Of a stretch of 64,000 bases of DNA, positions 41,708 to 63,901 are shown piece after piece (positions within the stretch are counted from its first letter, which is position 1; every line of letters starts with the position of its first letter). The stretch is from Escherichia phage PGN829.1. The stretch lies in sequence record NC_070871.1; one strand, written 5' to 3'. The notes beneath the pieces are model-generated. The model saw only the letters and a program-made list of their open reading frames with translations. It was not told the DNA's origin and made no database searches. A program made the position numbers and the translations under genes.

Positions 41708-41708
41708 T

Positions 41709-44363
41709 ATGGGCTTATTCAGTGGGAAGACCAAAGTATACGTAGCATCCTCTGTCTATAACATGGCAGGGGATATACATAAACGCCCTAACTATATGAA
41801 GACTGTAGTTATAGGTAATATTGTTTCCAATACAGGATTCACTATGGCAGATACTATCTCTGATAGTTATCTGAATGGGCCAGGTATTCGTATGCGACTG
41901 TTCTCCAGCTGGAGTAAGAACCACTATGATTCAGTAGTTGGTATGGCTGGTTCTTCATTGGGTGTATTGGCTAAGATTGACCCTACCGTTATAGAGGGTC
42001 AAATTACACCCCCTGCTGGTGAATCAGTCTATGTTCAGGCAGCAGAGATTGGCTTTGCTGACTTTGAGCAATGGTGTGACCAGTATCTTTATGAGAATGC
42101 TCCAAGTCGAATCATGGAACGATTCGACATAGATATTGATGAAGATACTAATGAAATCACTATGACCTCCTTAGATGGAGGCTCTACTATTACATTCACA
42201 CCTACTAACTTTGAACCAGGTGCTTTATATCTCTATGCTGATTACTCATTCTATAAGTCCCCTTCTACTAATCCTCCGGTAGTAGGACCGACTACTGTCT
42301 ATGATGATGAGGATGACTTACCTTCCACTTTGTTATGGACTACCGTCTCAAGTGATACGACGGCTAACACAACCAATCTTACTAAGACTATACATACTCA
42401 TTCTGTTTACTCTGATGGCAGACCGGATGAAGACAGTACTGTCACAGAACCAAGTGTGGATAACTGGAACTCTTACGTTAAAGTTTATCGTAGAGGATTC
42501 ACTGAGAAACCCGATGATGTGACTGTAGTTGTATCTGACAGGGTAATGACTCATACAAAATTTGGTGAGATTCAATCCAGTACTTCTGTAACTACTAATG
42601 TGGTTGATATAGGTGGAGGTGTTACTCGTACAGATACAATCACTACAACCACAGAGACACTGGTTCGTAAGTACTCATCCCAGACTACCCGTACTGATAC
42701 CGAGATGACTGCTGTTAGTACACCTAAAATGCTTATTTATAAGCAGAACTCCGGTAACGTTGCACTGGATTCTTTGTTCGAGACTGAAGCTACTGATAAC
42801 CGATTCTACCCATTCATTCCAATCAGGAATGATAAACAATGGGTAGAGAATGACCCAATCTACCCTCACTGTAAGAAAGCCCTTTATAAAGCTACTGGTG
42901 GAAAAATTGATAAAGTAGTCACAGAGCTTAAGAAGAATGATGATATAGGAGATATTCAGTACATCTATGGTTCATTCGGTGTATCCCTTAATACTCCTGA
43001 GGATACTGCTAAGGAATATATCTACCGTTTCTTTCAGATGGCTACTGAAGCATTCCCACCTGACCCAACCTACCCAACACTGGAAGCAGTGATTGCAGGC
43101 TATCAGGCAGCAAACGATGCAGTTGATGCATACGTAGAATGGTGGAACAGGCAGGAAGGTCAGATTGTTGGAACACCTCCACCATTACCAGAATACCCAG
43201 TCATACCTAAGCGTGAGTTTAGGGTACATAGTAATAAGCAATACAAGTACGATATGACTATTGGCTGGAACTATGTATCTGAAACTACCCATTCAGGACA
43301 AGCATGGTCTGGTGCTAAGCAAGGACAACTTCGAGCCAGATATGCGGGAGATATAACGCTTACTCGTAAGAACATACGTACTGCTAGTAACTCTGGTTCA
43401 GTTAAGAAGTTGGAAGTTACTACTACATTTTACTCTATGCAGGAGTATGAGTTACTTTGGCAGGATGGTAATGACACTTACCGTAAACTTAGAGTATTGG
43501 GTCTAAACCACAATAACAGGGTATATAAGAATAAGTCAGTGCATATTGACGTTGCCGAAGCAATGGGGGATGCAGAGGAGAGTGGGTTCATTATCCCGCT
43601 GCACACCAATATTTACCGTTCAATGTCACTGGTTCGTAGTACACAGCTGTCTACTGCCTGTTCCTACTTAGTGATGAACTCATATAAGAAAGTTAAGCAG
43701 AAGTGGTACACAACATCTGCCTTTAAGATTGTGGTTGTTGTAGTTGCTGTCGTTGTATCTGTATTTACTATGGGTGCTGGTGGTGCAGGTATTCTTGGGG
43801 CATACGGTGCAGTTGGTGCATCCCTGGGTTTTGTTGGATTAGCTGCTGTAATAGTTGGTGCTGTAGCAAACGCAATTGCTGCAATGATTCTGGTATCTAT
43901 TATCACAAAAGTATCCACTTCATTGTTCGGTGATAAGCTAGGTTTTATCATTGCTGCTATTGCCTCAATGGTAGCCATGAACGTTGGTACTGCTTTGTCT
44001 ACTGGTACATCCTTATCCTCCCTAGCTGGTGAAATGATGAATGCTCAAAACATCATGCAGCTTACCAGTTCGGTAGGTAATGGTATTAGTCAGTATATTA
44101 ATGCATCCACGGCTGCTACTATTCAGAAAGCAGAGAATATAATGCAGCAGTACAATACTGATATGATGGCAATCAATAAGCAGTATGAAGAAATGTTTGG
44201 TACTGCTGGACAGGGTGTGATTGACCCCATGCAATTCGTGTCAATGGAGTCGTTGGATTCATTCTTGTCACGTACTCTCATGACTGGTTCAGATATAGCT
44301 GACTTGTCCTTAGACATGGTTGGCAACTACTCTGATATGACTCTTAATACTGACCTTGTTTAA
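41709..44363 (+). CDS. large internal virion protein with C-terminal multi-helix Gly/Ala-rich membrane region (candidate ejection/channel protein)
   Basis: 884 aa; C-terminal VVVVVAVVVSVFTMGAGGAGILGAYGAVGASLGFVGLAAVIVGAVANAIAAMILV... hydrophobic bundle. Confidence 0.4.
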   Translation: MGLFSGKTKVYVASSVYNMAGDIHKRPNYMKTVVIGNIVSNTGFTMADTISDSYLNGPGIRMRLFSSWSKNHYDSVVGMAGSSLGVLAKIDPTVIEGQITPPAGESVYVQAAEIGFADFEQWCDQYLYENAPSRIMERFDIDIDEDTNEITMTSLDGGSTITFTPTNFEPGALYLYADYSFYKSPSTNPPVVGPTTVYDDEDDLPSTLLWTTVSSDTTANTTNLTKTIHTHSVYSDGRPDEDSTVTEPSVDNWNSYVKVYRRGFTEKPDDVTVVVSDRVMTHTKFGEIQSSTSVTTNVVDIGGGVTRTDTITTTTETLVRKYSSQTTRTDTEMTAVSTPKMLIYKQNSGNVALDSLFETEATDNRFYPFIPIRNDKQWVENDPIYPHCKKALYKATGGKIDKVVTELKKNDDIGDIQYIYGSFGVSLNTPEDTAKEYIYRFFQMATEAFPPDPTYPTLEAVIAGYQAANDAVDAYVEWWNRQEGQIVGTPPPLPEYPVIPKREFRVHSNKQYKYDMTIGWNYVSETTHSGQAWSGAKQGQLRARYAGDITLTRKNIRTASNSGSVKKLEVTTTFYSMQEYELLWQDGNDTYRKLRVLGLNHNNRVYKNKSVHIDVAEAMGDAEESGFIIPLHTNIYRSMSLVRSTQLSTACSYLVMNSYKKVKQKWYTTSAFKIVVVVVAVVVSVFTMGAGGAGILGAYGAVGASLGFVGLAAVIVGAVANAIAAMILVSIITKVSTSLFGDKLGFIIAAIASMVAMNVGTALSTGTSLSSLAGEMMNAQNIMQLTSSVGNGISQYINASTAATIQKAENIMQQYNTDMMAINKQYEEMFGTAGQGVIDPMQFVSMESLDSFLSRTLMTGSDIADLSLDMVGNYSDMTLNTDLV

Positions 44364-50400: not shown

Positions 50401-53400
50401 GATACCACTCAAAAAGTAGCTGAAACTAAAACGGAAATGGAAACAGTTTTCCCTGTCTATAACAATGACAAGACACCGAACCAGTTCCTGAAATCATTTA
50501 CCCTGCCGGAAGAACCTAAGTCTCGCACCATTGGTTCTGAATCCCCTTTGACTGATATTAAGCAAGCACTGTCTTCTACTGCACGCTTTGAAGCATTCAC
50601 TCAAAAAGAAAATAACGCTCTCACAAGTGATGTGATTAAGCGTTATCAGGACTTAATGGGCTTTGGTGAAACTCTGAAGACTACTCTGTCTGATCGTCTG
50701 GCTAAGTTTCTTGCTAATAAGAACGTTGGTAAACGCTTTGCAGAAGGCACAGAGGCTAACCGTTGGGTAGGTGGTAAGTTACTTAATATCGTAGAGAAAG
50801 ACGGAGACACCTTTAAGTTCAATGACCAGTTGTTAGAGACTGCTGTACTTGCTGGTCTGCAATGGCGACTGACTGCTACACAGAATGCTGCTGTTAAAGA
50901 CATGAAAGATGTAGCTGCTATTACTGGTGTAGAGGCATCTCTGTTACCTGAAGGTATTCTGGCTGACTTCGAGAATGCTCAGACTCTGGTTGAAGCTACT
51001 AACTCACTGGCTCAAAAGATTGAATCTTACTGGGGTTTGAATCGCAATCCAAATGCACCACTGGGTTATACCAAAGGTATCCCAATGGCAATGGCTACGG
51101 AGATTCTGTCTTCTTTCATTGAGATGGGTGAAGTTAAAGAATCTATGCTGGATGTGTCTGAGTTTGACCCAGACTCTAATAAGACCGTCGGTCTGTATAC
51201 CATTGAGAAGCTGGATGATAACGATGCCATTAACAAGTTCCCTACTGCTATCGAGGAAGCTGTTCTCGTAGAACCAGAAGAGAAAATGTACTTTGGTGAT
51301 GATATTCCTTCCGTGGCTCAAACTCAGTTACGTAACCCTGCTGTTAAGAATACCCCAGAGCAGAAAGCTGCTCTTAAAGCAGAACAGGCTACCGAGTTCC
51401 GTGTACACATGCCGATGGTTAACTTCTATGAAGCATTAGGTCGTGACAACATTCTGGAACTGATGGGTGCTGGTACTCTTAATCCTGAACTGCTGAACGT
51501 GAACACTGCTAAGTCACTGGAGGGTAAAAACCTGTCAGTGTCTATGGCATATGATTCCCTGTTCGGTGTAATCAACCAGTTACAGGAACAGGAGAATGGT
51601 CTGGATACGCCTATTCACTATGGTTACAACATGACCCGTGTAGGTCGTATGCAGATGTTAGGTAAGAACAACCCACAATCCAGTAAACTGGTTCGTGAAG
51701 CAATTCTGCCAACCTTCTCTACTATTGACTTGAGTAATGAAAATAGCCAAACATTCTCTGACTTCCAGCTAGGACTGGCTCAGGCATTGGGTATCAAGGT
51801 ACATAACATGTCCCGTGAAGCTATGTCTGAAAAGTTGACCAAGGCTCTGGAAGGTAATCTGAAACCTGCCGTTGATATGGTGGTTGAGTTTGATAAGTCT
51901 GGTCACTTACCAGCTAATGCAGTGGATATTCTGAAAACATCTCTGGGCGGCGATAAATCATTCGTAGCTCTTATGGCTCTTATGGAATATGCCCGTTACC
52001 TGAACAGTGATGACCGTGCCAACTTTAATACCCCTCTGTACGTTGAAGCCGATGGTGTAACTAACGGACCAATCAACGCAATGGTATTAATGACCGGTGG
52101 TAAGTTCACTTCAGACTGGGTTAAGAATACTGCTAAAGGTGGCTTGTTCTTCGGTAAAGCTGGTAAGACTATGAATGAACATCGTTCACAGGATGACAGT
52201 GTTGACCTGTATGAAGCATCTACCAATGGTCTGCAACAAGCACTTAATGAGTTACGTACTACTTACCGTAACAACGTTCCGGTTATGAACCAAATGAATC
52301 ATCTTCAGAAGTTAATGGACCTGTTTATTAAAGACTTTAACCTGAATGAAGACGGTACTCTGGACCTGAAACGTGGTATCGCTAAAAACCCACTGACTAT
52401 TACCATCTATGGTTCTGGTGCTCGTGGTATTGCTGGCAAGATGGTTAGTGCAATTACTGACACCATCTATGAACGCTTCAGTGATGTTCTGCAAGCTCGT
52501 GCTGCTGACCCTAGCATTTCCCCAGCTATGGCAATGTTTGGTAAGGAGGCTGCGTCTGAGGCTGATGCTCAGGCTATGCTGGATACTTTCCTTACTTCTA
52601 TGGAAGCACTGACTGGTAATGTTCCAGTTATGCGTAAAGGTGAACTGTCTATTCAACAGGTAGAAGGTGCTCTGACTGGTAAGTTAGACCCTCAGAAGTT
52701 TACCGTATCAGGAAATGCTCTGAAGAACTTACAAGAGAACATGCTTCACCTGTTCGTTGAACCAATGCGTACTGGTATCCGTAATACTGTTGGTGAAGGT
52801 CTGATGCATTCTACTGAGAACTTGCAGAAGGCTACCCAGATTCAGTCACTGGTATTGCAGGATATGTTCCAGCAACGTGTCCAGGAGAAGCTAGCAGAAA
52901 AAGAAAAAGACCCAACATGGAAAAAGGGTGATTTCTTAACACAGAAAGAACTGAATGAAATCCAGGAATCATTATCCCCACTAGCTCCAATGATTGAGAC
53001 TGGTTCACAGACTTTCTACATTGCTGGCAGTGAAAATACTGATGTTGCTAACCAAGTTCTGGCTACCAACTTAGATGATCGTATGCGTGTGCCAATGAGC
53101 ATCTATGCTCCTTCACAGGCAGGTGTTGCAGGTATTCCTTTTATGACCATTGGTACTGGCGATGGCATGATGATGCAGACCCTTTCTACTATGAAAGGTG
53201 CTCCGAAGAATACCCTGAAAATCTTTGATGGTATGAACATTGGTATCAACAACATCACTGATGCAAGTCGTAAAGCTAATGAGGCTGTATACACTTCCTG
53301 GCAGGGTAACCCTATCAAGAATGTCTACGACTCCTTCTCTAAGTTCATGAAGAATGTAGACTTCAGCAAACTGTCTGATGAAACCAAACAGGCTATCGCT

Positions 53401-56400
53401 AAATCTGCTCTGGAATATGACCAGCGTGAAGGTGCTACCGATGACCTGTTACGTGTTGGTGCTGAACAGATTGAACGTAACCTGCGTAATATTGCTCTGG
53501 GTGTAGATATTCGTCACAAAGTAATGAACCAGGTACAGACTACTGTTGACCAGATGGCTGCTGTTGGTGCTCCTTATGTGAACAACGGTAAAATCTCTCT
53601 GGAAGGTCTGACCGTAGACCAACAAGTAGCTAAGCTAAATGAACTGTTCGATGCTGAATTAAACAAACGTCGTGATGCAGTACGTGCTGCTAAAGTAGAA
53701 CCAGTGAAAGAAGTGCCAGCAATGGAACAGGTTGGTCGTGTACTGAAGTCTGGTGTACGCCTACTGTCTAATACTGCTATCTCTAAGCTGGCTAAAGAGA
53801 TGTCTCCGGAACAGCAAGCAGTACTGAAAGAAGTACAGAAATCCCTTGCTGCTAAAGACTATAAGGTTGTTTACGGTACACCTTCCCAACTGGATGCTTA
53901 TGCTATTGAGAAGAATATTACTCGCCCAGCACCAGAAGATATTGAAGCTGCTGAAGCTGGTAATGCGTATGGTTGGACTAACTTTGAAGATAAGACCATC
54001 TACTTAGTTACCCCTTCCTTAGAGACTCTGGTTCATGAATTGGTGCATGCTTCTACTTTTGAATCTGTACTGGCTCACTATGAGGGTACTCCTAATGAAG
54101 CGGTCCAGAACATTGAAGACCTGATGAACCAGTTCCGTGCTCTGGATGTTAAGGATGAATCCCCGGCAGTTCGGGAAGCATATGCAGATGCTCTTAATAC
54201 TATTAACGGTCATTTATCTAATGGCTTTATTGAGCCAGCAATGGCTAAAGCTGCTGCACTGAATGAGTACATGGCATGGGGTTTAACCAACCGTGAACTG
54301 ATTAGTAAGCAGAAGAAAACCACTGCACTTAAGACTATGGTTCAGGCTGTATATGAAGCAATTAAACGTCTGGTATTCGGGCGTAAGAAAGCACCAGCTA
54401 ATGCAGATGATATGTTCTCTGGCTTACTGTTTAACTCGTCCGTAGTTATGCGTGGGCAAGCTCCTACTGCTGCTGTAGTCAAAGATACTACTCTGTTCCA
54501 TAACAAAACGTATGGTGACAATACTCGTCTGGAAGAGCTAGGGAAAACCTTCGATAAACTGATTACTGACTACATTGGTTCTGAACCAGTACAGCAAGTA
54601 ATTCGTAAAGGTAAGTTCTCTGATGCAGTGGTTAATGCGACTAAAGTAACTCGTGATGTTCAGGCTCATGGCTTCACTATGAATATGCAGGAACAACGTC
54701 TCTTTACTAACATTGTTGCTGCTCTGGCTACTGAGGCTGCTATTAATCCTGCTGCTCTGGCTCGTGCGCAGGAATACTACACACATGTTACTAAGAACCT
54801 GACCGTTGAGTCATTCATGACTGACCCAGATAGTACTAACCCTGCTGACCGTTACTATGCACAGCAGAAGTTCGATACCATCATGGGTGCTAACAACATT
54901 GAGTTTGATTCACAAGGTCGTTCCTCCTTACTGCCTACCTTTATTGGTCTGGCGATGGTAAGTGAAGAGGTACGTAAAGTGCTGGCTGATATTCCAGTTA
55001 TGAAAGTAGACAAGAAATCTGGCAATACCGCTGATGCAATGCTGACTAACATCGGTACTGCTGCAATGGCTAGTCTGAATGCTCGTGTAGCAGGAGATAC
55101 TAAAGCTACCAACGTACAGGAAGGTATGGATGCACTGGCTCAGACAATCATGCAGACCAGTCTTAATGCACAATCCTTCTATGATTCCGTTGCTACTCCT
55201 ACGGGTAATGCTATTGATCGTGCTAACCAGTATCTGGTGGACTCTATTGATGTACTGTCTACCCGTGCTTTAGAAGGTGCTCGTGAAGTTGCAGCTAATA
55301 CCAAGAACCCGTTGGTTAAAGGTGCTGCCCATGCTGCACAATTAATAGCTGCTATTGCTACAGAGAAGAATGGTGCAATCGTAGCCGAAGGTGTTATGGC
55401 TGCAATGAACCAAGGTAAAGTATGGCAACCCTTTCACGATCTGGTTAATGACTTAACTGGTCGTACTAAGAGTAATGCTTCTGTATATGATTTGATTAAG
55501 GCAGTGCGTGCCCAGGTACAGGCTGACCGTCAACAGTTCCGTGAACATCTGCCCACCACTATCGCATCTAAGTTCAGCCGTAAGCTGACTAATGATGAGT
55601 GGAAAGCAATGCATACCGGTATGGGTAAAACCGACTTAGCTGTTCTGCGTGACACTATGTCTCTGGCTGAAATTCGTGACCTGCTGACTGACCAGAAGAT
55701 TGTTGACCGTGAGGTTAATAAACTGGAAGCAGATTTGCAGAAACAAGCTGGTCGTAACTGGCCTTTGATTAACCGTAAATCTAAGCAACTGGCTCAGTAC
55801 ATGATTAATGGAACAGTTGGTAATAACCTGCTGCGTAATGCTACAGCAATCTCTCGTATGCTGGGTGAACGTCAGGCTGCACGTTCTACTGTAGACGTAG
55901 CTCAACTGGATAAACTGATTACTCTGTATGCACTGGAAGCAATGAGTAAAACTGACCGCGAGGTGTTATCTTCACTGGCTCAGACAGAGATTGAAGGCAT
56001 GGACTTCGCTACTTCTTATCTGGTTGGTCAGCGTAAAGATGAAATGGCTAAAGCCAAATCTGATACTCGTGCAACTCTGAACCAGTACAAAGGGTATATT
56101 CCTGGTGAGACTAAACAGGGTGTTAACTTGATAGTTGCTGAAGATAGTCAGTTTGCTGATTTGATTGAGAAGTCCTATGTACGTCTGGGTACTTATCAGG
56201 GTAGCTCTGCTAATCGTGGTCCAGCACGTAGCTACTACTTTGCACCGGTACAGGCACAGGCTCCATTCTCGCAAGGTATCTTACAGAACGTTCGCAATAC
56301 TGCTGGTGGTGTAGACCTTGGTACAGGCTTTACGATGGGTACAATGGTAGCTGGTCGTATCACTGACAAGCCTTCTGTAGACCGTATCACTAAAGCACTG

Positions 56401-57837
56401 GCTCGCGGTGAACGTGGTAATGAACCACTGCTGCCTGTATATGATGATAAAGGCAATGTGGTTGCTTATGAGCAATCTATTGACCCTAACATGCTGAAGC
56501 ACATTGAGGGTGAGAACCATCTCGCTCGTGCAATCGGTGTATGGCGTGGTCGTCAGGTAGAGGAAGCTAAGGCTCAGCGTTTCAACGATATGCTGATTGA
56601 GAACCTGCATAGCATGTATGAGAACGACATTAAGATGTCTACCTCTAATAAGTCACAGTACGTTAACCTTCTTGGTTCTAAACTGGATCCAGTAACTGCT
56701 GATGCTCTTAAACTGATGAACAGTGAAACTCGTCAGAAAGCAGAAAGTCTGTTTGGTGAAGGTGAACTGTGGGTACGTCGTGACATGCTGAATGATGCAC
56801 TGGGTTATCGTGCAGCTTCTGTAGGTGATGCCTGGTCTGGTAACTCTCGTTGGTCACCGGAAACATTGGATACCTTCAAGAAAGCTATGTTGGGTGTATT
56901 TGGCAACCGTGCTTACAAATATGTAATGGGTGGTGAGAATCTGGTTCAGAACTTAGTTAAAGAAGCCAAAACTCTGATTGTAGTTAAATCAGTAGTTGTG
57001 CCTGCTGTTAACTTCCTGGCTAACCTTTACCAGATGGTCGGTCGTGGTGTACCTGTTAAGAACATTACTAAGAGTATTCCACAGAAGACTGCTGAGATTA
57101 ATCAGTACCTGAAATCTCGTCTGCGTCAGGTAGATGCAGAAGCGGAATTACGTGCAGCTACTAACCCGAACCAGATTCGTAAACTTAAAGCTGAGATTCA
57201 GTCCATCACTGATAGCCATAAGCGTATGAGTATCTGGCCTCTGTTAGAAGCTGGTGAGTTTTCTTCAATTGCAGATGCTGGTATTGGTCGTGATGACATC
57301 CTGATTACTGAAGGTAAACTTCATGAATACATGGATAAGCTGGCTGATAAGTTACCTAAGTCTGTACGTAATGCTGGACGTTATGCACTTATCACCAAAG
57401 ATACTGCTCTGTTCCAGGGTATCCAGAAGACGGTTGAGTACTCTGACTTTATTGCTAAAGCAATCATCTATGATGATTTGACTCAGCGTAAAGGTAAGAC
57501 TCGTGAAGAAGCACTTGGACGTGTAACGGAAGAGTTCATTAACTATGACCGTCTGCCTGGTCGCTTCCGTGGGTATATGGAAAGTGTTGGTCTTATGTGG
57601 TTCTATAACTTTAAGATTCGTTCTGCAAAAATTGCAGTATCCATGATTCGTAACAACCCGGTACACGCAGCTATGGCTATGTTGGCTCCAACTCCTACCA
57701 TGTTTGGTAATGTTGGTTTACCTATTCAGGACAACATCTTCAGTATTGCTGCACAAGGCAATCTCGGTTACTCCTGGGGCTTCGGTCAGGGACTTCGTGC
57801 CCATAACCTTAACCCTTGGCTCAATCTAGCTAACTAA
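47467..57837 (+). CDS. virion-encapsidated RNA polymerase (vRNAP, N4 gp50-like giant protein)
   Basis: Single 3456-aa ORF (N4 vRNAP about 3500 aa); last gene of the late operon, converging on a bidirectional terminator. Confidence 0.9.
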   Translation: MNRKHAMSTFDRLAGFADSITNAKQVDVSTATSQKQAAQGQSPFQLTPENAYNLQTGRVGNLGIGAFEPGSLQADFTQASPLEILNKYGNEQGLQIINSRANAADVVRQDLSKQRTNAEAFGDTLSGVGLGVANTLGGIAALGTGLVNDNAGASIASGMDWLNEGVHNLQSDALNATRKVVQNQNQISAQKNQKLYEEDIKNGESSLVASLSRIGRDAFDSVANTLDNGMAATDGLSEGVGSLFTGGPLIRGVSALGKVMVGGDKAVKGITLAAELGSRPAQIALSAGRVAAPAIAIGGMEAGGAYQQTASEIMKMSHQELASKSPVYQQHIADGLSPDEARRQTASETGIIAASLTAPVAAATGPLVSKFELNPLKVGSLAGAGSNMLRETVEEGIQSGTSQFAQNKAIQGNVDAKRDLLKGVGEQAGLGALYGFGSAGVSQAPGATVKAVGASAGPALRTTLAGASLVGSALAKAASPITNILVQRGEEVAKRNEQASPVSDATVNAAAQEATAQAEQAQATVQEAVDAMDISPEEKAAATQYAADLTQAMKFDPVELEQANPAIREAVSGSTNRVEAIQKMADLVNTAEDPNVQMEAAIQMYDNIMSMDSFINRDPGALANLEQGSPAAAIVDQFSGLMANVQNTPKVLRAFRAIHSMIQEQAEAGKLKATEEANQAQANNIAMAADMSPEVLDADSVNMILKHASEGKITLGNHQRAALQSAAALLQGAREFDAKAEELGLRPQDIVSKQIKTDESRSNEGQYSALQHAKRIRSAYNSGNFDLASAYLDDFMKFAQHMQNKVGALNEHLISGNADKNKSVHYQALTPSREWVRSRTGLGVNPYDTKSVKFAQQVGLEAKTVADIANALATAYPELNVSHVKVTPLDSRLDKPAAQVVKEFRQGGLDATQSQQTNEPVNQVDETPAPAQETTTTVQPKAKPVVENKTVPVKEASSKAEEVSTTKSETVDATLTNEDTTQKVAETKTEMETVFPVYNNDKTPNQFLKSFTLPEEPKSRTIGSESPLTDIKQALSSTARFEAFTQKENNALTSDVIKRYQDLMGFGETLKTTLSDRLAKFLANKNVGKRFAEGTEANRWVGGKLLNIVEKDGDTFKFNDQLLETAVLAGLQWRLTATQNAAVKDMKDVAAITGVEASLLPEGILADFENAQTLVEATNSLAQKIESYWGLNRNPNAPLGYTKGIPMAMATEILSSFIEMGEVKESMLDVSEFDPDSNKTVGLYTIEKLDDNDAINKFPTAIEEAVLVEPEEKMYFGDDIPSVAQTQLRNPAVKNTPEQKAALKAEQATEFRVHMPMVNFYEALGRDNILELMGAGTLNPELLNVNTAKSLEGKNLSVSMAYDSLFGVINQLQEQENGLDTPIHYGYNMTRVGRMQMLGKNNPQSSKLVREAILPTFSTIDLSNENSQTFSDFQLGLAQALGIKVHNMSREAMSEKLTKALEGNLKPAVDMVVEFDKSGHLPANAVDILKTSLGGDKSFVALMALMEYARYLNSDDRANFNTPLYVEADGVTNGPINAMVLMTGGKFTSDWVKNTAKGGLFFGKAGKTMNEHRSQDDSVDLYEASTNGLQQALNELRTTYRNNVPVMNQMNHLQKLMDLFIKDFNLNEDGTLDLKRGIAKNPLTITIYGSGARGIAGKMVSAITDTIYERFSDVLQARAADPSISPAMAMFGKEAASEADAQAMLDTFLTSMEALTGNVPVMRKGELSIQQVEGALTGKLDPQKFTVSGNALKNLQENMLHLFVEPMRTGIRNTVGEGLMHSTENLQKATQIQSLVLQDMFQQRVQEKLAEKEKDPTWKKGDFLTQKELNEIQESLSPLAPMIETGSQTFYIAGSENTDVANQVLATNLDDRMRVPMSIYAPSQAGVAGIPFMTIGTGDGMMMQTLSTMKGAPKNTLKIFDGMNIGINNITDASRKANEAVYTSWQGNPIKNVYDSFSKFMKNVDFSKLSDETKQAIAKSALEYDQREGATDDLLRVGAEQIERNLRNIALGVDIRHKVMNQVQTTVDQMAAVGAPYVNNGKISLEGLTVDQQVAKLNELFDAELNKRRDAVRAAKVEPVKEVPAMEQVGRVLKSGVRLLSNTAISKLAKEMSPEQQAVLKEVQKSLAAKDYKVVYGTPSQLDAYAIEKNITRPAPEDIEAAEAGNAYGWTNFEDKTIYLVTPSLETLVHELVHASTFESVLAHYEGTPNEAVQNIEDLMNQFRALDVKDESPAVREAYADALNTINGHLSNGFIEPAMAKAAALNEYMAWGLTNRELISKQKKTTALKTMVQAVYEAIKRLVFGRKKAPANADDMFSGLLFNSSVVMRGQAPTAAVVKDTTLFHNKTYGDNTRLEELGKTFDKLITDYIGSEPVQQVIRKGKFSDAVVNATKVTRDVQAHGFTMNMQEQRLFTNIVAALATEAAINPAALARAQEYYTHVTKNLTVESFMTDPDSTNPADRYYAQQKFDTIMGANNIEFDSQGRSSLLPTFIGLAMVSEEVRKVLADIPVMKVDKKSGNTADAMLTNIGTAAMASLNARVAGDTKATNVQEGMDALAQTIMQTSLNAQSFYDSVATPTGNAIDRANQYLVDSIDVLSTRALEGAREVAANTKNPLVKGAAHAAQLIAAIATEKNGAIVAEGVMAAMNQGKVWQPFHDLVNDLTGRTKSNASVYDLIKAVRAQVQADRQQFREHLPTTIASKFSRKLTNDEWKAMHTGMGKTDLAVLRDTMSLAEIRDLLTDQKIVDREVNKLEADLQKQAGRNWPLINRKSKQLAQYMINGTVGNNLLRNATAISRMLGERQAARSTVDVAQLDKLITLYALEAMSKTDREVLSSLAQTEIEGMDFATSYLVGQRKDEMAKAKSDTRATLNQYKGYIPGETKQGVNLIVAEDSQFADLIEKSYVRLGTYQGSSANRGPARSYYFAPVQAQAPFSQGILQNVRNTAGGVDLGTGFTMGTMVAGRITDKPSVDRITKALARGERGNEPLLPVYDDKGNVVAYEQSIDPNMLKHIEGENHLARAIGVWRGRQVEEAKAQRFNDMLIENLHSMYENDIKMSTSNKSQYVNLLGSKLDPVTADALKLMNSETRQKAESLFGEGELWVRRDMLNDALGYRAASVGDAWSGNSRWSPETLDTFKKAMLGVFGNRAYKYVMGGENLVQNLVKEAKTLIVVKSVVVPAVNFLANLYQMVGRGVPVKNITKSIPQKTAEINQYLKSRLRQVDAEAELRAATNPNQIRKLKAEIQSITDSHKRMSIWPLLEAGEFSSIADAGIGRDDILITEGKLHEYMDKLADKLPKSVRNAGRYALITKDTALFQGIQKTVEYSDFIAKAIIYDDLTQRKGKTREEALGRVTEEFINYDRLPGRFRGYMESVGLMWFYNFKIRSAKIAVSMIRNNPVHAAMAMLAPTPTMFGNVGLPIQDNIFSIAAQGNLGYSWGFGQGLRAHNLNPWLNLAN

Positions 57838-57844
57838 ATGAAAA

Positions 57845-57873
57845 AGCCCCTCATTAGAGGGGCTTTAATTTTT
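57845..57873. terminator. bidirectional intrinsic terminator between convergent vRNAP and DUF2829 genes
   Basis: 8-bp stem AGCCCCTC/GAGGGGCT with ATTA loop, A-run upstream and TTTAATTTTT downstream. Confidence 0.65.
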
Positions 57874-57874
57874 A

Positions 57875-58375
57875 CTAAACTAACACCCAGTCTTCAGCTA
57901 ATATATCTGATTGGGATGGGACCCAAGGCATAAACTGGTTATCAACAGTTTTGATTCCTAACCATGGACGAGGTTTCAATTCATCAGCAAGTCCTGGACG
58001 CTCTAAGCTACTGCTATTCCATTCTTGAGCAGCAACGTACTCAATGTACATTCCTTTACCATTCCAGCCTTTACGGGCTAGTTTGAAGCCGGATTTGAGA
58101 AGCTCTACTGCATGACCAAAGGTGCAACCTTTTTCTACGTCATGGTACGCAGTTTCAAATGCAGATTTAGGTGACCAGCTAATATAGCCACGGAACTGAG
58201 GATGGTTAGACTTAGAGTCTGGGTACTCTACTAAGTAACCTTCTTCTAATGGGTCCTCATTAGCAGGTACATCCCAGCCACGAAGTTTGCAGTATGTTTC
58301 TTTGTTCATTCGGAAACCATTTACACACTTGGTTCCGATATAATTGGTAAAATGGACTTTAATTTCTTCTGACAT
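57875..58375 (-). CDS. DUF2829-domain protein (Tad2-like candidate cyclic-nucleotide sponge) with extra N-terminal domain
   Basis: Trimmed to ATG at 58373-58375 (GAGG SD); C-terminal half FGHAVELLKSGFKLARKGWNGKGMYI...PWVPSQSDILAEDWVLV matches recalled DUF2829 signature. Confidence 0.5.
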   Translation of the reverse strand: MSEEIKVHFTNYIGTKCVNGFRMNKETYCKLRGWDVPANEDPLEEGYLVEYPDSKSNHPQFRGYISWSPKSAFETAYHDVEKGCTFGHAVELLKSGFKLARKGWNGKGMYIEYVAAQEWNSSSLERPGLADELKPRPWLGIKTVDNQFMPWVPSQSDILAEDWVLV

Positions 58376-58393
58376 AACTACCTCAAATGAGAA

Positions 58394-58425
58394 AGCCCTC
58401 ACTAGGAGGGCTTGTTTTGTTTTGG
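58394..58425. terminator. hairpin with T-tract (terminator-like), between DUF2829 gene and upstream gene
   Basis: Stem AGCCCTC/GAGGGCT with 5-nt loop; TGTTTTGTTTT on plus strand, weaker TTCTCATTT on minus strand. Confidence 0.35.
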
Positions 58426-58493
58426 CTTCATGAGCCTTACCACATGTCGGGTAGTTCAGTACCTTTCGGTAAAAACTACCTTACACTTTTGAA

Positions 58494-58886
58494 TCAGATT
58501 GTACAACCACCACCATCACAGGTGTTGTTTTCTGCAAAGGAAGCCAGAGCTTTAGCAGTCTCTTCTTTCTCATGCAGTACCTGACGTAGCAGGTAACCTT
58601 CTAATTCCCAAATCTTATTGAATGCATTTTCATATGCATACTGACGGCCTTTTTGCTCATCATAGATAGCTGGGTCAACACAGGCAGATACACCTTCAAC
58701 TTTGAAGCCATTTTCCAAGATGATAATGCAATAGGTTATCAGACCCAGGTTAGCCAAATCATCTGCCGGGAGTGCAGATGGATCAACAAATGCAGACTTC
58801 ACTGCATCAGCTCCATTAAAATAGTAGACGCTCTTAATCTTAGCTTCGATTGCTTCTTTACTTACTGTTGCCATTATTAGCCTCAT
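58494..58886 (-). CDS. hypothetical protein
   Basis: 130-aa ORF (possibly starting at internal ATG 58874); no family recognised. Confidence 0.35.
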   Translation of the reverse strand: MRLIMATVSKEAIEAKIKSVYYFNGADAVKSAFVDPSALPADDLANLGLITYCIIILENGFKVEGVSACVDPAIYDEQKGRQYAYENAFNKIWELEGYLLRQVLHEKEETAKALASFAENNTCDGGGCTI

Positions 58887-59016
58887 AGAGTGGTTTGAGT
58901 TTGTACTTAAACATGACTGCGTTGTTATAGGCTACGCTACCTGCAAACACCAAAGACTTGCGTCCTCGATTATCCGTTACCTCATAGGCATACGGGGTTG
59001 AGATTAGGTCAATCAT
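58858..59016 (-). CDS. small hypothetical protein (weak)
   Basis: ORF-track ORF uses TTG start inside the terminator; internal ATG at 59014-59016 gives 52 aa; no good SD. Confidence 0.2.
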   Translation of the reverse strand: MIDLISTPYAYEVTDNRGRKSLVFAGSVAYNNAVMFKYKLKPLYEANNGNSK

Positions 59017-59040
59017 ATTGATTATCCAATTATTAATACT

Positions 59041-59080
59041 CAAATAAAAAAGTCCCCCAGAGTGACGGCTCCAGGGGACT
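59041..59080 (-). terminator. intrinsic terminator closing the minus-strand noncoding/tRNA-like transcription unit
   Basis: Stem AGTCCCC/GGGGACT enclosing a 16-nt loop, followed on minus strand by TTTTTATTTG. Confidence 0.55.
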
Positions 59081-59762
59081 TAGTACTATTTACCCATAGC
59101 TGGGAGGCTTTTGGTTCTTACCACGAAGACAGTCCACGCTGACCAGGCTTGGGATTGATAGTCCCGTTCCTGTGGTAATTACTCAGGCTAGGATTTAAGG
59201 AGTTCCTATTCTCCAGCGAAATTCCCGTCGAAGGGAATAACAATACAATAGCAGCCACTGGACTGTCTTACCAGTGTTGTCTTTAGAGTGCGGTGCAATC
59301 AGGACTATGTTACTGCTAAATAGGTGAGTCATGCCAGACTCTAACTGGCTCCTTCTTCGCAATCCTTACATACCCCTACATAATTATTGCGTTAAGCTTT
59401 TTTGTTTAAGTTTAAGTGAAGGCGTTCTTGCTGACTCATAATAGGGTGGGCGTTTGACGAATGACTAGTTCGTTACTACCCATTTGCCATAAGTACCTGG
59501 CGACTTGGGTTTGAGGTGGGAGTCCGAGTCCTGTACAGCCTTACCGTTAACACATTGGCAGCGTATCTAGAATTGCACTTCCGGCAACTGGATTTAACTG
59601 TTACACCTCAAATATGGTAGGGGCGTCCAGAAGTCTCATCTGGTACTTACGCCGTCGTATGGTTACGACTTACCCCCATAATTCTTCCAATTCAGAGTAG
59701 CACTGTCACGGTAGGTGCTTTAAATGCCGGGAAACATTTAAATATACAATGCTACTTTGAAT

Positions 59763-59886
59763 TGGTTATCAGTGAAGGATTCGAACCTCCGGTTGGAGTC
59801 TATAGCTTACCGCAGCAGCCCTCCAATCTAGCGGTGTCACACTTAGTCCAAACTTGAACATGTCAAGCCATCTCGTGCAACTGATA
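59763..59886 (-). tRNA. tRNA-like element 1 (acceptor stem, D-arm-like, T-arm, encoded CCA; 124 nt, no canonical anticodon arm)
   Basis: Minus-strand read: TATCAGT...GGAGG-TTCGAAT-CCTTC-ACTGATA-A-CCA; 7/7 acceptor pairing; U8, A14, G18G19 at expected positions; about 48 nt excess in the body. Confidence 0.4.
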
Positions 59887-59888
59887 AT

Positions 59889-59954
59889 TGGTTCCGGCGT
59901 CTGGACTCGAACCAGAACACTCATGCCGTGCACGGCACTAGTACCTACACCGGA
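59889..59954 (-). tRNA. tRNA-like element 2 (acceptor stem, T-arm, encoded CCA; only 66 nt)
   Basis: Minus-strand read: TCCGGTG-...-TCTGG-TTCGAGT-CCAGA-CGCCGGA-A-CCA; 2 nt from element 1; central GCCG-TGCA-CGGC hairpin instead of D/anticodon arms. Confidence 0.4.
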
Positions 59955-60135
59955 ATAAATTGCCAGGGATTCCACCTGGCTCCATCTGTTTTTAAAGTCA
60001 CTCAGATATCGTCTGGACTTGTTGTGGAGTGACGCACCACCTCACTCTTAAATGTTAACCCATTCCCAGCCCCACAACACACGCTACGGTTAAGATTATT
60101 GCGCATGGTGTATGGTCTTGCTGGTCACAACGGAA

Positions 60136-60218
60136 AGAGCACTTGCGGAGTCGAACCGCCTTGTCTTCTAGAGCTTTCGCATATAACTAATCGCTAGTCT
60201 ACGTCACCCGTAATGCTC
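60136..60218 (-). tRNA. tRNA-like element 3 (acceptor stem and T-arm, no encoded CCA; 83 nt)
   Basis: Minus-strand read: GAGCATT-...-GGCGG-TTCGACT-CCGCA-AGTGCTC-T; acceptor 7/7 with one G-U; body does not fold into a canonical cloverleaf by hand. Confidence 0.3.
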
Positions 60219-60912
60219 TTTCCTGTTATGTTCCCTGACTTATTAATCACACCTCAGGGACGCAGTGCGCCGAATTTGTTTACAAGGAATCGGAAGACCT
60301 TGCTGACTTACAGGCTATTACGCCGCCATCAGAATAACATCATCGTTTGCATTTATGTAATTGGTTCGTTTCTAAAAAACCGCATAATCGCTTACGAAAA
60401 CTATCAAAGAGTACACTAAGCACAGGTAGCTATCCTGCCGTCTTCTCTACCTACACCGGCTACAGTGTAGACCTCCGCACGTTAGCTTAATATACTCATT
60501 GATAGGATGTTATAATAGGGGAGGGAGGACGAGTCCCTCTTTACCCTATGATTTAGTTTACACGTAAGACCTAACATTTCAATGCTGGATGAATAGAGTA
60601 ATGAACTATCCGACATTAATGGTTAATGTTGTGCTCAGCATGAGCGTTAGTTGATAAGGGATCTGAAGCCTTATCCCAAAGATACTAACCTTTGGGATAT
60701 AGCCTAAGATTCAGAAATGGCCACTATAGGGAGAGGCCATTGATTAACCCGAATGTTGCTTTACATTTTCTGTGATAACCCATTCTTAAAATAGTCTGTC
60801 TGACGGATGGGGGGCCACCCCTAGCGTCAGTGCCATACGGCAAAGATTAAGTTAAGAAAGGTTATGATAGGAGTTCCTATCTCAAAGGATTCTAACAGAA
60901 CCCTTCACGATA

Positions 60913-61083
60913 TTAACTACTCTTTTTCAGTGCTTCTACTTCGCCCTCTTTATACCAAGCATATGGTATTAAGATTTTGCAGCCTTCTGATTCAATGTGA
61001 AATGCTTTCTTTCCTTCAACAGGTTCTCCACCCATGAAAGAACTAATCTTCCCATTGAGCCAGTGAATAGTAAATTTGTTCAT
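60913..61083 (-). CDS. small hypothetical protein (56 aa), below ORF-track cutoff
   Basis: Own translation MNKFTIHWLNGKISSFMGGEPVEGKKAFHIESEGCKILIPYAWYKEGEVEALKKSS; GAGG SD 7 nt upstream. Confidence 0.35.
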   Translation of the reverse strand: MNKFTIHWLNGKISSFMGGEPVEGKKAFHIESEGCKILIPYAWYKEGEVEALKKSS

Positions 61084-61314
61084 ATTAGCCTCAGTTGAAC
61101 CAATCCCCTTCGGAGAGTATTAAAGGGGACTGGTTCGGTTGTTGTTATTCTGGCGGCTTGTCACCACCGTGTTTACCACTGCATTTCCACAGGATAATGA
61201 CAGTGATGATAAAAGCTATGTATGGAGCCGACACGTCTATAATCCTGACCAGTAGTAGCATCAGGACTATAAACACTACCACACCTAGCAGCAGCTTCTG
61301 AGCCACCTACCAAA

Positions 61315-61755
61315 TTAACTACGTTTAAGGCCAGCGAACAGTGAAGGCTTAGTAGCAGGTTTCTCTGCTGGTTCTTCAGCCTTAACTTCTTCCTGCACAA
61401 CTTCTTCTTGTGCTTCTGGTTCAGTCACTGCTTCTTCTTCAGGTTCCGGCGTAGAACTCCCGTTCTGACCACCAGTAGAGGTCTGGGTTTCTTCTTCCTT
61501 TACCTCTTCAACCGTTTCTTCCGGTTCCGGTTCTACCGGACGGTGTTTGGCTTCCTGAGGATTCTTACGAGAACGGCGAGTTTTCTTCTCTACTCCCACG
61601 GGTGGAGTATCTTCATGAACCTCTTCGTTGATACCAACGGAGGCTGTACCATCTGCATTGATGACAATATTAATATCACCAGCAAGGTTGATTTGATCAT
61701 CGACATAAGCCTGTACAGCAGCTTCTACTTCGGACTGGTTCAAAATGATTTGCAT
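61315..61755 (-). CDS. acidic protein with SSB-like C-terminal tail tip
   Basis: 146 aa; Glu/Pro-rich low-complexity tail ending KPSLFAGLKRS, echoing the SSB C-terminus ...GGKSLFGKR. Confidence 0.4.
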   Translation of the reverse strand: MQIILNQSEVEAAVQAYVDDQINLAGDINIVINADGTASVGINEEVHEDTPPVGVEKKTRRSRKNPQEAKHRPVEPEPEETVEEVKEEETQTSTGGQNGSSTPEPEEEAVTEPEAQEEVVQEEVKAEEPAEKPATKPSLFAGLKRS

Positions 61756-61756
61756 A

Positions 61757-62311
61757 TTATGCCTTTAATAACTTAATGAGGTTCTGGAAAGCTGGGAGAT
61801 TTACACCAGCGTGGATTGCACCGATTGCATCTGCTAAGTGCTCATTCTTATTCAGAAGTTTGCCCTTCTTATCAGTGAGCCAGTTGGCTTCTGGATAGAC
61901 GGCATGAGCAGCACGAATCATCGTGTCCTTAGATGCAGTTTTATCACCGACCAGTGCAAGTTTGTTTTCAATTGGGGATACTTCAAAGATTGGACAACCT
62001 AATGCACGAAATGCACCTATTAATCCTACGCATACGCCATAGGATTTCATACCGTTAGCAGACTGAGAGCCTACTGGTACTTCTACGAATACTGCTTTAG
62101 CAGACCGTAACCATTCTTCACAACCAAGAAACAAATCGTGAGCGGCTTGTATATCTTTGGAGTTGGTTCGAACTTGTTTGTTGTGGTCAACTTCAGTTTG
62201 AACCAGTTTAAGTTCGACCTGCTCGAAGACGCCGGACTCAATGTCCAGCATCCCACGAGCTAAACCCCAATTGCGGAGACTAATGTCTGCACCAACAATT
62301 GGGATTTTCAT
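61757..62311 (-). CDS. RuvC-like Holliday junction resolvase
   Basis: 184 aa; N-terminal IVGADIS (RuvC GxDxGS-like), VFVEVPV, C-terminal NEHLADAIGAIHAG (RuvC H-x-AD-A motif). Confidence 0.5.
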   Translation of the reverse strand: MKIPIVGADISLRNWGLARGMLDIESGVFEQVELKLVQTEVDHNKQVRTNSKDIQAAHDLFLGCEEWLRSAKAVFVEVPVGSQSANGMKSYGVCVGLIGAFRALGCPIFEVSPIENKLALVGDKTASKDTMIRAAHAVYPEANWLTDKKGKLLNKNEHLADAIGAIHAGVNLPAFQNLIKLLKA

Positions 62312-63108
62312 TAACGTTTACCGAACAGTGATTTACCACCAGCAGGAGCAGTACCCGTGCCAGCACTTGGTTTAGGAAGCAAGCCACCTTTGCCATTAAC
62401 ACCAGCAGAACCCTTGGTCTTATCACGGGTTTTACCCTTGTTCTTTTCTAACCATGCTGCATAAAATACAGCCAGTTCTGGGGTCAGTTCTTTCTCAGCC
62501 TTCTCTGCTTCCTGAGCCTCGACGACTGTGACCAGCAGTTCCGGGTGAAACACTTTCTGAATCTCGTTTACTTCACGGGTTTCACCGGAATCAACGTAAC
62601 CGTTGTCACCCTTAACCTGCTTAGATTCCAGAACCTTTTCCAGGGCGAAGGTAACAGTCTGACCAACCAGGTCTACTGGAACCATGACAGATTTATTAAC
62701 TTCTGCTTTAGCATCGAAGTCATAGACTTTAACAATCTTCTCTTCGAAGTCAGCCTCAGGCAGTTCCGTACCGGTAGCCATCAGCATCATGTCGTTAATG
62801 ACGGTGTATCCCGGCAGGAAGTATTCTTTACCGTTCTTCTCGTAAGTAGGCTTATTGCCTTTAGAATTACCAGAAGTGAAGTACACCTGTGAACGGAACT
62901 CGCCAGCATCATTACCATCAGAACCTTTCAGGTTTTCAATGATTAACTGCATCCAGTCTGCACCAGAGTCAGCTTTACCTACGTAAGCTACTTTTACAGT
63001 ACCGGTGTAGATATCTGACTCCTTTGCACCGAAGCCACCACCACCAAGGGAGTCTTTTACAGCTTCAACGTTTTTGGTTTTTTCTTTCAAGTTACTGAAC
63101 AGTGACAT
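62311..63108 (-). CDS. single-stranded DNA-binding protein (N4 SSB/gp45-like)
   Basis: 265 aa, the size I recall for N4 SSB; Gly-rich flexible C-terminal tail; sits between RecA-fold ATPase and resolvase genes. Confidence 0.5.
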   Translation of the reverse strand: MSLFSNLKEKTKNVEAVKDSLGGGGFGAKESDIYTGTVKVAYVGKADSGADWMQLIIENLKGSDGNDAGEFRSQVYFTSGNSKGNKPTYEKNGKEYFLPGYTVINDMMLMATGTELPEADFEEKIVKVYDFDAKAEVNKSVMVPVDLVGQTVTFALEKVLESKQVKGDNGYVDSGETREVNEIQKVFHPELLVTVVEAQEAEKAEKELTPELAVFYAAWLEKNKGKTRDKTKGSAGVNGKGGLLPKPSAGTGTAPAGGKSLFGKR

Positions 63109-63148: not shown

Positions 63149-63901
63149 TTAAGCGTAGTATTCAGCCAGATGGTCTAAGAGTTTCTGGGCATCATTATCA
63201 ATGTAAGTCTCAGACTTATCGAACATACCCATTGGGGAACGTAGACGTTTACCAACAGACTTCTTGGTTGGGCGAGTCTGGAATACGTGCTTATAACCTA
63301 AGTCACGTTCTTCTTCGGTAATTTCAAGCATCTTGTTGCCATACTTCTCCAGCTCTTTAATGTCTACACGCTCTGCGTAAACCACTGTAGAGAAGTAAGC
63401 CTCAAGACCATTGTTCTTCAGAGAACCTTTCACTGGGATGAATGTTTTAATCACACCAGCAGCTTCGTCGAGTTCATCTTTGGCATGGGCAGTAATAATT
63501 ACTGGCTTACCAAATTTAACAACTTTCTGTTGCAGCAGTATTTTAAAGAACTGTGCAAAATCTCCCCATGCCTTCTGAGTATTAGCAGATGGCAGTACAT
63601 ACTGAGATTCCAGCATATCCATCATGAAGGTAGCAGAGTCGATAATGATTCCATCAACATCGTCTGCCATTTCACCACCTGGGGATGCAACATCAAATGC
63701 TTCCCAAATCTGATATGGGTCTTCAATGTTGTAGGTATTAAACTTGTTACGGAAAGGTAGACGTTTACCTGCTTCAGTATTCAGATAGAGCCAGCGTTCC
63801 TGGTTCCTGATGTTACGCAGTGATGCTGATTTACCACTCGCTGAGAATCCTGCAATCAGGATTAGCTGAGTGTTCATATCATTGGAGATTTCTTCGGACA
63901 T
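63149..63901 (-). CDS. P-loop ATPase (RecA-fold recombination/replication ATPase, Sak4/AAA_24-like)
   Basis: 250 aa; Walker A GFSASGKS near N-terminus, Walker B-like IIIDSA. Confidence 0.5.
   Translation of the reverse strand: MSEEISNDMNTQLILIAGFSASGKSASLRNIRNQERWLYLNTEAGKRLPFRNKFNTYNIEDPYQIWEAFDVASPGGEMADDVDGIIIDSATFMMDMLESQYVLPSANTQKAWGDFAQFFKILLQQKVVKFGKPVIITAHAKDELDEAAGVIKTFIPVKGSLKNNGLEAYFSTVVYAERVDIKELEKYGNKMLEITEEERDLGYKHVFQTRPTKKSVGKRLRSPMGMFDKSETYIDNDAQKLLDHLAEYYA

Follow-up and report, generated by a model that had tools for sequence, protein, structure and literature searches.

A shared C-terminal tip on the SSB and the resolvase-linked gp47 protein of N4-like phages, a probable docking peptide

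[quoted passage not shown] The question is raised by Escherichia phage PGN829.1, of which a stretch of 64,000 nucleotides (sequence record NC_070871.1; called the window throughout) was analysed. On the minus strand of the window lie the gene for an N4-type SSB of 265 amino acids, the orthologue of N4 gp45 or N4SSB (62311..63108; phrog_743, E=3e-88), and a gene of the gp47 family encoding 146 amino acids, the orthologue of N4 gp47 and a homologue of gp61, or 'Bes2', of Pseudomonas phage Ab09 (61315..61755; phrog_7641, E=5e-68). The gene located between them, also on the minus strand, encodes a RuvC-like Holliday-junction resolvase of 184 amino acids, the orthologue of N4 gp46 and of Ab09 Bes1 (61757..62311; phrog_159, E=2e-42), and relatives carry the RuvC-like annotation as well. 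A first-pass annotation of the window had pointed out the common tip and had proposed that the second protein is a competitor or co-regulator at a docking site of the SSB. Here we examine the conservation of the tip, its pairing within phages and the link of gp47 to the resolvase. Our reading, which draws on sequence comparison and structure models, is that the motif [KR]-x-S-[LI]-F-[GAS] is probably a docking peptide through which the SSB and a module linked to the resolvase would share one receptor.

The shared tip and its conservation

Both minus-strand open reading frames (ORFs) exist, and their tips, translated anew, read as the first-pass annotation had written them. The SSB ends in ...PSAGTGTAPAGGKSLFGKR, its last residues being KSLFGKR, and the tip proper (K259-SLFGKR-265; 62314..62334, minus strand) has the family consensus A-P-[RG]-K-S-L-F-G-K-K; N4's own SSB ends in AAKSLFGKK. 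The C-terminus of gp47 is ...EKPATKPSLFAGLKRS, with KPSLFAGLKRS as its last residues, and its tip, TKPSLFAGLKRS (61318..61353, minus strand), has the consensus [PK]-[KP]-[RK]-S-[LI]-F-[AG]-[GN]-L-[KS], the position counts being taken over 55 non-redundant proteins. The earlier naming of the SSB was borne out by the match to phrog_743, which covers residues 1-264 and hence the full length, by 95% identity to G7C gp45 and by about 59% identity to the SSBs of Enquatrovirus, the N4 group. Its gene sits between those of a Sak4-like ATPase (gp44) and the resolvase (gp46), as expected for an N4-type SSB.

Each tip is carried on a tail that is predicted to be disordered. In the AlphaFold2 model of the SSB, a confident core spans residues 25-233, and residues 234-259 have predicted local distance difference test (pLDDT) values <50. 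The flexible, G/A/P/K/T-rich tail (residues 226-258; 62335..62433, minus strand) is of low pLDDT and variable in the alignment; it is also basic, since residues 226-265, tip included, have an isoelectric point (pI) of 11.3 and 9 K+R versus 1 D+E. The gp47 protein is acidic, as the first-pass annotation had said (pI 4.35; 34 D+E versus 14 K+R), and its model consists of a confident N-terminal domain of 45 residues followed by about 85 low-confidence residues. From the N-terminus it comprises a folded alpha/beta domain (residues 1-48; 61612..61755, minus strand; pLDDT 80-91), a basic patch, DTPPV..KKTRRSRKNPQEAKHRPV (residues 49-75; 61531..61611, minus strand; pI 10.4), that is conserved in the Enquatrovirinae alignment, and an acidic, E/P/T-rich linker (residues 76-134; 61354..61530, minus strand; 21 D+E versus 3 K+R) ahead of the tip. 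The linker, with pLDDT 43-52 and values <50 over residues 80-128, is likewise predicted to be disordered, in agreement with the earlier description of both tips as following flexible tails.

Within the window the tip is particular to these two proteins: among 69 non-overlapping ORFs of at least 60 amino acids, S[LIM]F falls within the final 12 residues of the SSB and gp47 only. Further ORFs with a C-terminal SLF were set aside, that at 10274-10522 as spurious, since it lies inside a real ATPase gene in another frame, and those at 27607-27786 and 51996-52262 because, as judged by GC skew alone, they are on the strand that is non-coding in the plus-strand block of late genes. The window is short of the complete genome by about 9 kb, which includes the DNA polymerase, primase and exonuclease. 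In one close relative, the tip is absent from the helicase, DNA polymerase, polynucleotide kinase, exonuclease, primase and Sak4.

The shared tip is regarded as real because it is conserved across the homologues of both proteins. Among the SSB homologues listed, which extend down to 37% identity, [LIM]F occurs within the last 12 residues in 120/120 and the form S[LIM]F in 111/120; by position, S is present in 111, L in 118 and F in all of the 120. An alignment of 38 SSB sequences has F262 invariant, among only eight invariant residues of the protein, and L261 nearly so, and in the same alignment the G/A/P/K tail ahead of the tip is free to vary in length and sequence.

The gp47 family gives a similar result. 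P137, S138, L139, F140 and L143 are invariant in an alignment of 16 sequences, and the C-termini of the G7C, KP8, Moo19 and phi1_146050 proteins all read KPSLFA[GN]LKR(S). A search of 1.84 billion representative proteins was made with gp47 residues 1-75 only, so that matches could not be selected on the tip; 12 of the 14 matches end in ...SLF[AG][GN]L..., the remaining pair being truncated or frameshifted. Searching a 90%-clustered database with gp47 yielded near-identical Gamaleyavirus proteins only, and across 120 near-identical gp47 sequences it is in the acidic linker that variation lies, with SLFAGLKRS kept in 119. More distant members were collected with a hidden Markov model (HMM) of the N-terminal domain of 11 phages, run on 81 sequences: 80 loci, comprising named phages and IMG/VR contigs (ORFs of metagenomic loci being called stop-to-stop), plus the window segment. 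The non-redundant, complete gp47-like matches have [LI]F, nearly always as S-[LI]-F, within the last 25 residues in 51 of 52 cases. The first-pass annotation had named loss of the motif from orthologues of either protein as the finding that would speak against its proposal; what we find is conservation in orthologues of both, across many Schitoviridae subfamilies.

The sole exception among the 52 is the N4 reference protein, whose annotation is frameshifted. As annotated (YP_950525.1; locus L007, NC_008720, 5679-6113), N4 gp47 ends in ...KPNLLCLQV, and the other frame reads ...EEEAKEPVQAKPSLFAGLKR up to its stop codon. Alignment to phage SPSP (locus L008, 5352-5795) places the fault in a run of A residues, where N4 gene 47 is one A short; the corrected end is ...KPSLFAGLKR. 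Either the reference is in error here or the laboratory strain has a mutation, and through the frameshift the motif was probably hidden from earlier workers.

Pairing of the tips and the link to the resolvase

A second, tip-bearing ORF was found in 55/55 loci that have at least 2.5 kb of sequence downstream of the SSB gene, 52 of them through the HMM and three by eye. Whether their hosts are alpha-, beta- or gamma-proteobacteria, the phages have the S-L-F core without change, and the residues around it often agree between the two proteins of one phage. Thus, in Pollock the SSB ends in KPTKSLFAK and gp47 in NPTKSLFARN, with PTKSLFA common to both; in phiEaP8 the tips are QPRKSLFG.. and QPRRSLFG.., and in Pa2/Ab09 PASLFS and GGSLFS, each at the very C-terminus. 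Both proteins of Vibrio phage 1.025.O terminate in SLFG, and both of locus L059 in SLFN; locus L077 pairs SGLF on the SSB with RGLF on gp47, and the roseophages pair SSLFDD or TSLFD with SSIFDVD or GSIFDT, respectively. One roseophage, DSS3phi2 (locus L014, FJ591093), has an unannotated ORF of 154 amino acids (5312-5776), one of the three found by eye, located 3' of its SSB gene and ending in ...KKSSIFDVD. This end matches ...KSSLFDD on the SSB of that phage, and the ORF is probably a gp47-like gene that is divergent and was overlooked.

When partners were shuffled, the permutation probability came to about 5e-5 for the whole set and, in the short-tip clade, to about 7e-4; these values ignore phylogeny, and the difference between short and long tips is largely one deep split on the SSB tree. 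For both of these reasons the co-variation is supportive, not decisive. The synonymous codons of one phage's two tips differ in most pairs (AGC CTA TTC versus TCA TTA TTT, for example), which rules out recent gene conversion of the two 3' ends as the source of the matching tips and argues that the match is maintained at the protein level. The tip flanks also differ between phages of one host, as between N4 and Pollock or between Litunavirus and Zuri. Taken together, conservation and within-phage co-variation uphold the supposition that the same tip on a second protein points to a shared docking site.

An apparent second SSB and an apparent non-N4 context were also considered. The 'two SSBs' of Shigella phage pSb-1 (locus L001, NC_023589, 7115-7911) were rejected as paralogues, being one SSB split by a frameshift or sequencing error. 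Locus L082 (1-20741), from the chromosome record of Salinimonas marina (CP064795, 3.77 Mb), holds an N4-like block of primase, AAA_24 protein, SSB, resolvase, gp47-like protein and virion RNA polymerase (vRNAP), which may be an N4-like element, integrated or carried, or else an artefact of the assembly. As an N4-like element with its own vRNAP it is uninformative for phylogenetic profiling, and its SSB homologue was rejected as an instance of a non-N4 context.

The tip-bearing module is tied to the resolvase. Downstream of the SSB, gp47 always stands directly after the resolvase gene, or is fused to it, whether the resolvase is RuvC-like or of the non-orthologous RusA-like type that replaces it in other subfamilies, e.g. 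in Pollock and Vibrio 1.025.O. In several contigs a RusA-type resolvase, the gp47 N-terminal domain, the linker and the SLF tip form a single ORF (locus L036, 4784-5704; L080, 4768-5694; L040, 2329-3198; L032, 2297-3226). PHROG profiles confirm the composition of these ORFs, a RusA part being joined to a phrog_7641/18842 part, and the entire 'RusA-like' PHROG families 14238, 1682 and 33948 are RusA::gp47 fusions, which is why gp47 of the window matches phrog_14238. The fusion is a classic Rosetta-stone link of gp47 to the resolvase.

A third copy of the PhiF-x-x-L motif is found at the N-terminus of the SSB, MSLFSNLKEK (63079..63108, minus strand). Its family form is M(S)xLFGNLK; the strict pattern is present in 103/120 homologues, and FGNL in most of the others. 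AlphaFold2 predicts a short helix at residues 5-10 with a pLDDT of about 71; between it and the core is a linker of low confidence (residues 17-24). In the long-tip clades, the gp47 tip SLFA[GN]LK is closer to this N-terminal SLFGNLK than to the C-terminal tip of the SSB. The resolvase gp46, too, ends in a segment, PAFQNLIKLLKA (61760..61795, minus strand), conserved in RuvC-type loci as TP[AMVIL]F[QLK]NL[MI][KR]L; it is like the SSB N-terminal motif and the gp47 tip, and may be a mere structural helix.

The arrangement suggests how the tips might act. A short linear docking peptide would be displayed at the ends of disordered tails on two Schitoviridae proteins: on the N4-type SSB, with its basic tail, and on gp47/Bes2, with its small N-terminal domain, basic patch, acidic linker and tip. 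The latter is the free-standing form of the C-terminal extension that is fused to the RusA-type resolvase elsewhere; in RuvC-type phages, PGN829.1 among them, it is a separate protein encoded directly after the resolvase. By virtue of the shared tip, the resolvase-linked module could occupy the receptor of the SSB tail, and the gp47 module would be recruited to the location of the SSB's partner. One site with two ligands would entail hand-off to, or competition with, the SSB. We infer, then, that the tip is a docking peptide, that both proteins have one receptor and that gp47 works with the resolvase. That gp47 may compete with the SSB, as had been proposed, is plausible, and a recruitment or adaptor role would fit the resolvase link, the Bes phenotype described below and the N-terminal motif at least as well as pure competition.

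Candidate receptors and rival explanations

The one client of the tail with experimental support is host RNA polymerase. In N4, single-stranded DNA binding by the SSB is dispensable for the activation of late transcription and its C-terminal residues are essential; N4SSB makes contact with a conserved stretch at the C-terminal end of beta', and the late promoters are those of E. coli sigma70-RNA polymerase (PMC4496689). The role of the C-terminus in activating host RNA polymerase at late promoters, which the first-pass annotation had cited, is thus as stated in that review. Our own leaning is tentative and goes to a receptor among the phage's replication or recombination proteins, or else to the core of the SSB, because such a receptor fits the resolvase link, the N-terminal copy of the motif and the variation of flanks within one host; the Sak4-like ATPase is a candidate. 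The beta' C-terminus appears a doubtful choice as the receptor of both tips, and a different receptor (the beta-clamp, another host protein or the membrane), or none in common, is less probable still.

A phenotype for one member of the gp47 family comes from Ab09. A June 2026 preprint names gp60 (RuvC-like) Bes1 and gp61 Bes2, either of which singly rescues a gp57-61 deletion phage from Thoeris I/II and from the type II-A cyclic-oligonucleotide-based antiphage signalling system (CBASS II-A) (bioRxiv 10.64898/2026.06.04.730250). By our analysis Ab09 gp61 is a member of the gp47 family: the N-domain HMM matches the ORF of Pa2 (Litunavirus, the Ab09 species) that corresponds to Ab09 ORF61 with E=7e-22. 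[quoted passage not shown] A text search of the preprint met no mention of the motif, disorder, an SSB-like tip or an in-frame fusion.

Such a fusion is likely at the junction of the Ab09 Cas3 deletion, reported as 41,096-42,899 (bioRxiv 10.64898/2026.06.04.730250). In the Ab09 sequence (locus L081, HG962375) the start of the deletion is 51 bp short of the stop codon of the SSB gene, and its end is 53 nucleotides short of that of gp61. Both ends lie on a 7-nucleotide microhomology, CCGGCAG, whose copies are 1803 bp apart, a multiple of three. Judged from these letters, the likely product in the mutant joins SSB(1-246), in frame, to the C-terminal 17 residues of gp61 and has ...PAAKQAAPASTGGSLFS (...TGGSLFS) as its end. 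If the deletion is one of 1803 bp, the viable mutant is likely a natural tail swap that keeps the tip.

Several points weigh against a docking peptide for one common receptor. The strict identity of the two tips is S-L-F only, three residues with basic flanks, and is weak evidence alone. Tip co-variation is weak in the large long-tip clade (p 0.06-0.2, phylogeny ignored). Docking on RNA polymerase, the one client known from experiment, is no obvious fit for a resolvase-linked module. It was possible to recover and propagate the Ab09 gp60-61 deletion mutant, and the gp57-61 mutant grows well when immunity is absent (bioRxiv 10.64898/2026.06.04.730250), so that any recruitment role is non-essential in the laboratory. 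Moreover, should the deletion be literally 1804 bp, the SSB of that mutant is tip-less and the phage grows, which would make the SSB tip dispensable there.

Among the rival explanations, the foremost is that the shared receptor is the beta' C-terminal region of host RNA polymerase, where gp47 would compete or co-activate with the SSB to tune the timing or level of late gene expression. The required C-terminal residues of N4 SSB and its binding to a highly conserved region of beta' speak for this, and S-L-F invariance in phages of alpha-, beta- and gamma-proteobacteria is what a conserved host target would lead one to expect; throttled late expression would also explain how Bes2 evades a type II Thoeris system triggered by late proteins. 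However, it leaves the fusion and adjacency of the module to a Holliday-junction resolvase unexplained, and the RuvC-like Bes1 yields the same phenotype as Bes2; we consider this explanation unlikely on balance. A fuller version, in which the tip couples replication and recombination to late transcription and gp47/Bes2, delivered along with the resolvase, competes for beta', throttling or delaying the Thoeris/CBASS-triggering late structural proteins (for example tail fibres), strikes us as improbable; if true, it would amount to immune evasion through the timing of transcription and not through signal sponging, and would account for the mechanism of Bes2. Rather unlikely, too, is the suggestion from the motif's distribution that the tips and the N-terminal SLFxNLK bind the SSB core, giving cooperativity on single-stranded DNA and loading gp47 or RusA::gp47 onto SSB-coated DNA. 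The SSB does have the motif at both ends, the tips of long-tip gp47 proteins are nearer to its N-terminus than to its C-terminal tip, and flank variation among phages of the same host would be expected of a phage-encoded receptor. The tethered N-terminal helix is modelled with moderate confidence, though the low-confidence linker parts it from the core, and the resemblance is limited by clade, because short-tip clades have N-terminal LLxNL and a gp47 tip without the xxL.

The tip could also be read as a degenerate beta-sliding-clamp-binding motif of the QL[SD]LF type that would dock the SSB and the resolvase module on host DnaN. Positions 3-5 of that pentapeptide, [SD]-L-F, are matched exactly, at disordered termini as in clamp-binding motifs, and the record of a close relative has no annotated phage clamp within its first 50 kb, the part where the early and replication genes lie. 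There is precedent in the archaeal Hjc resolvase, which has a C-terminal PCNA-binding tip, and in T4, whose replication and late-transcription proteins share clamp-binding C-termini. Yet instead of the Q of position 1 there is R, G or K, and 80/120 SSBs have K in place of the L of position 2, with gp47 similar; N4 gp8, moreover, is an inhibitor of the host's clamp loader, and N4 replicates largely without recourse to host replisome genes. We regard this possibility as very unlikely. Lower again stands membrane targeting, by which the tips, as basic-hydrophobic sequences like the C-terminus of MinD, would hold the SSB and gp47 at the inner membrane. E. coli MinD ends in ...KRLFGG, K/R flanks with L-F(-x-x-L) resemble short amphipathic membrane anchors, and a small transmembrane ORF is conserved after gp47; but the hydrophobic residues number only two or three, roseophage tips end acidic (SLFDD, SIFDVD), short tips such as a terminal SLFG form no amphipathic helix, and the gp47 linker is strongly acidic. 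That the similarity arose by chance, or is a remnant (for example of an ancient duplication of a 3' gene end) with no common function today, could appeal to S-L-F alone being strictly shared and to the deep SSB-tree split onto which much of the short-versus-long co-variation maps. This explanation is effectively refuted by the conservation data: tip retention is near-universal in both families while the adjoining tails change freely, several fine-scale co-variations are independent, and the codon divergence indicates selection at the protein level.

Genomic setting and comparison with known systems

By its sequence the window belongs with the G7C-like (Gamaleyavirus) members of the N4-like phages. 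Over 2.75 kb around the SSB and gp47 genes, identity to G7C-like coliphages (Gamaleyavirus, Enquatrovirinae, Schitoviridae) is 93-98%, and the G7C counterpart of the 146-residue protein is annotated as 'similar to N4 gp47'. Four minus-strand genes stand in a row, the orthologues of N4 gp44, gp45, gp46 and gp47. The first of them (63149..63901, minus strand) encodes the Sak4-like or AAA_24 ATPase (PF13479, E=1.3e-10; phrog_124, E=2e-49) and is the upstream neighbour of the SSB gene in one recombination-replication operon. Directly after gp47 comes an ORF of 53 amino acids (61145-61306, minus strand) with a hydrophobic, apparently membrane-spanning segment; in N4, JWAlpha and Pollock, as well as in several of the metagenomic loci, gp47 is likewise succeeded by a small hydrophobic ORF. 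ARAGORN found no tRNA genes in window positions 56000-61400, downstream of gp47. A tRNA cluster is annotated between gp47 and the vRNAP gene in the close relatives UE-M3, KP8, Moo19 and SPSP.

The shared tip of the SSB and gp47 has no prior description in the literature searched on N4-like gp47 and Schitoviridae SSB tails, and the motif, its family-wide conservation, its N-terminal copy and its gp47 copy are not defined in the N4SSB literature searched. [KR]-x-S-[LI]-F-[GAS] offers a concrete motif for how N4SSB activates host RNA polymerase and for what else its tail contacts, and the same motif is a handle on the mechanism of Bes2/gp47. It marks the SSB, the resolvase (RuvC- or RusA-type) and gp47 as one functional module conserved across the Schitoviridae, a family that includes therapeutic phages of Pseudomonas, Klebsiella and E. 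coli. The Ab09 mutant with the published deletion can be reinterpreted as a probable SSB-Bes2 tail chimera, and the N4 reference annotation of gp47 needs correction. If the receptor is RNA polymerase, the second tip would be a new way to tune late transcription; should a phage protein or the SSB prove to be the receptor, the phages would have a new recruitment system for the resolvase that works by sharing the SSB tail.

Several known systems invite comparison. One is the activation determinant of N4SSB itself: the SSB of the window is its orthologue, and both have the KSLFG tip; the difference is that, in N4 as described, the annotated gp47 hides its tip behind the frameshift. With Bes2 the gp47 of the window shares its family, its position after a RuvC-like gene and its architecture, and the immune phenotype was shown for Ab09 gp61. 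The bacterial SSB C-terminus (...DDDIPF) has the same layout of a folded core binding single-stranded DNA, a disordered linker and a short conserved hydrophobic tip, by which it serves as a hub for the docking of other proteins. In contrast, the phage tip has K/R flanks and is basic, not acidic; its phenylalanine is not terminal, with G/A coming next and 1-7 residues after it in the SSB and up to 15 in gp47; and the phage SSB core is a divergent, monomer-type fold whose tip also occurs on a non-SSB protein.

Two proteins of one phage replication machine with look-alike C-terminal tails are also known from T7, where the acidic tails of gp2.5 and gp4 end in phenylalanine and bind the same basic patches of gp5/thioredoxin, an arrangement that leads to hand-off or competition. 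There the tails are acidic DNA mimics, whereas here acidity is confined to the gp47 linker, the tail of the SSB has a pI of 11.3 and is thus basic, and the phenylalanine is not terminal; the second protein, furthermore, is linked to a resolvase and is not a helicase. In T4, the C-termini of gp43, gp33 and gp55 bind the gp45 clamp, and such peptides couple replication, recombination and late transcription through one hub. The phage tips resemble these clamp-binding C-termini, the QL[SD]LF motif and the Hjc-PCNA peptide in being short, hydrophobic peptides of the [SD]LF type at disordered termini, and they differ from them in that the Q and L of positions 1-2 are absent.

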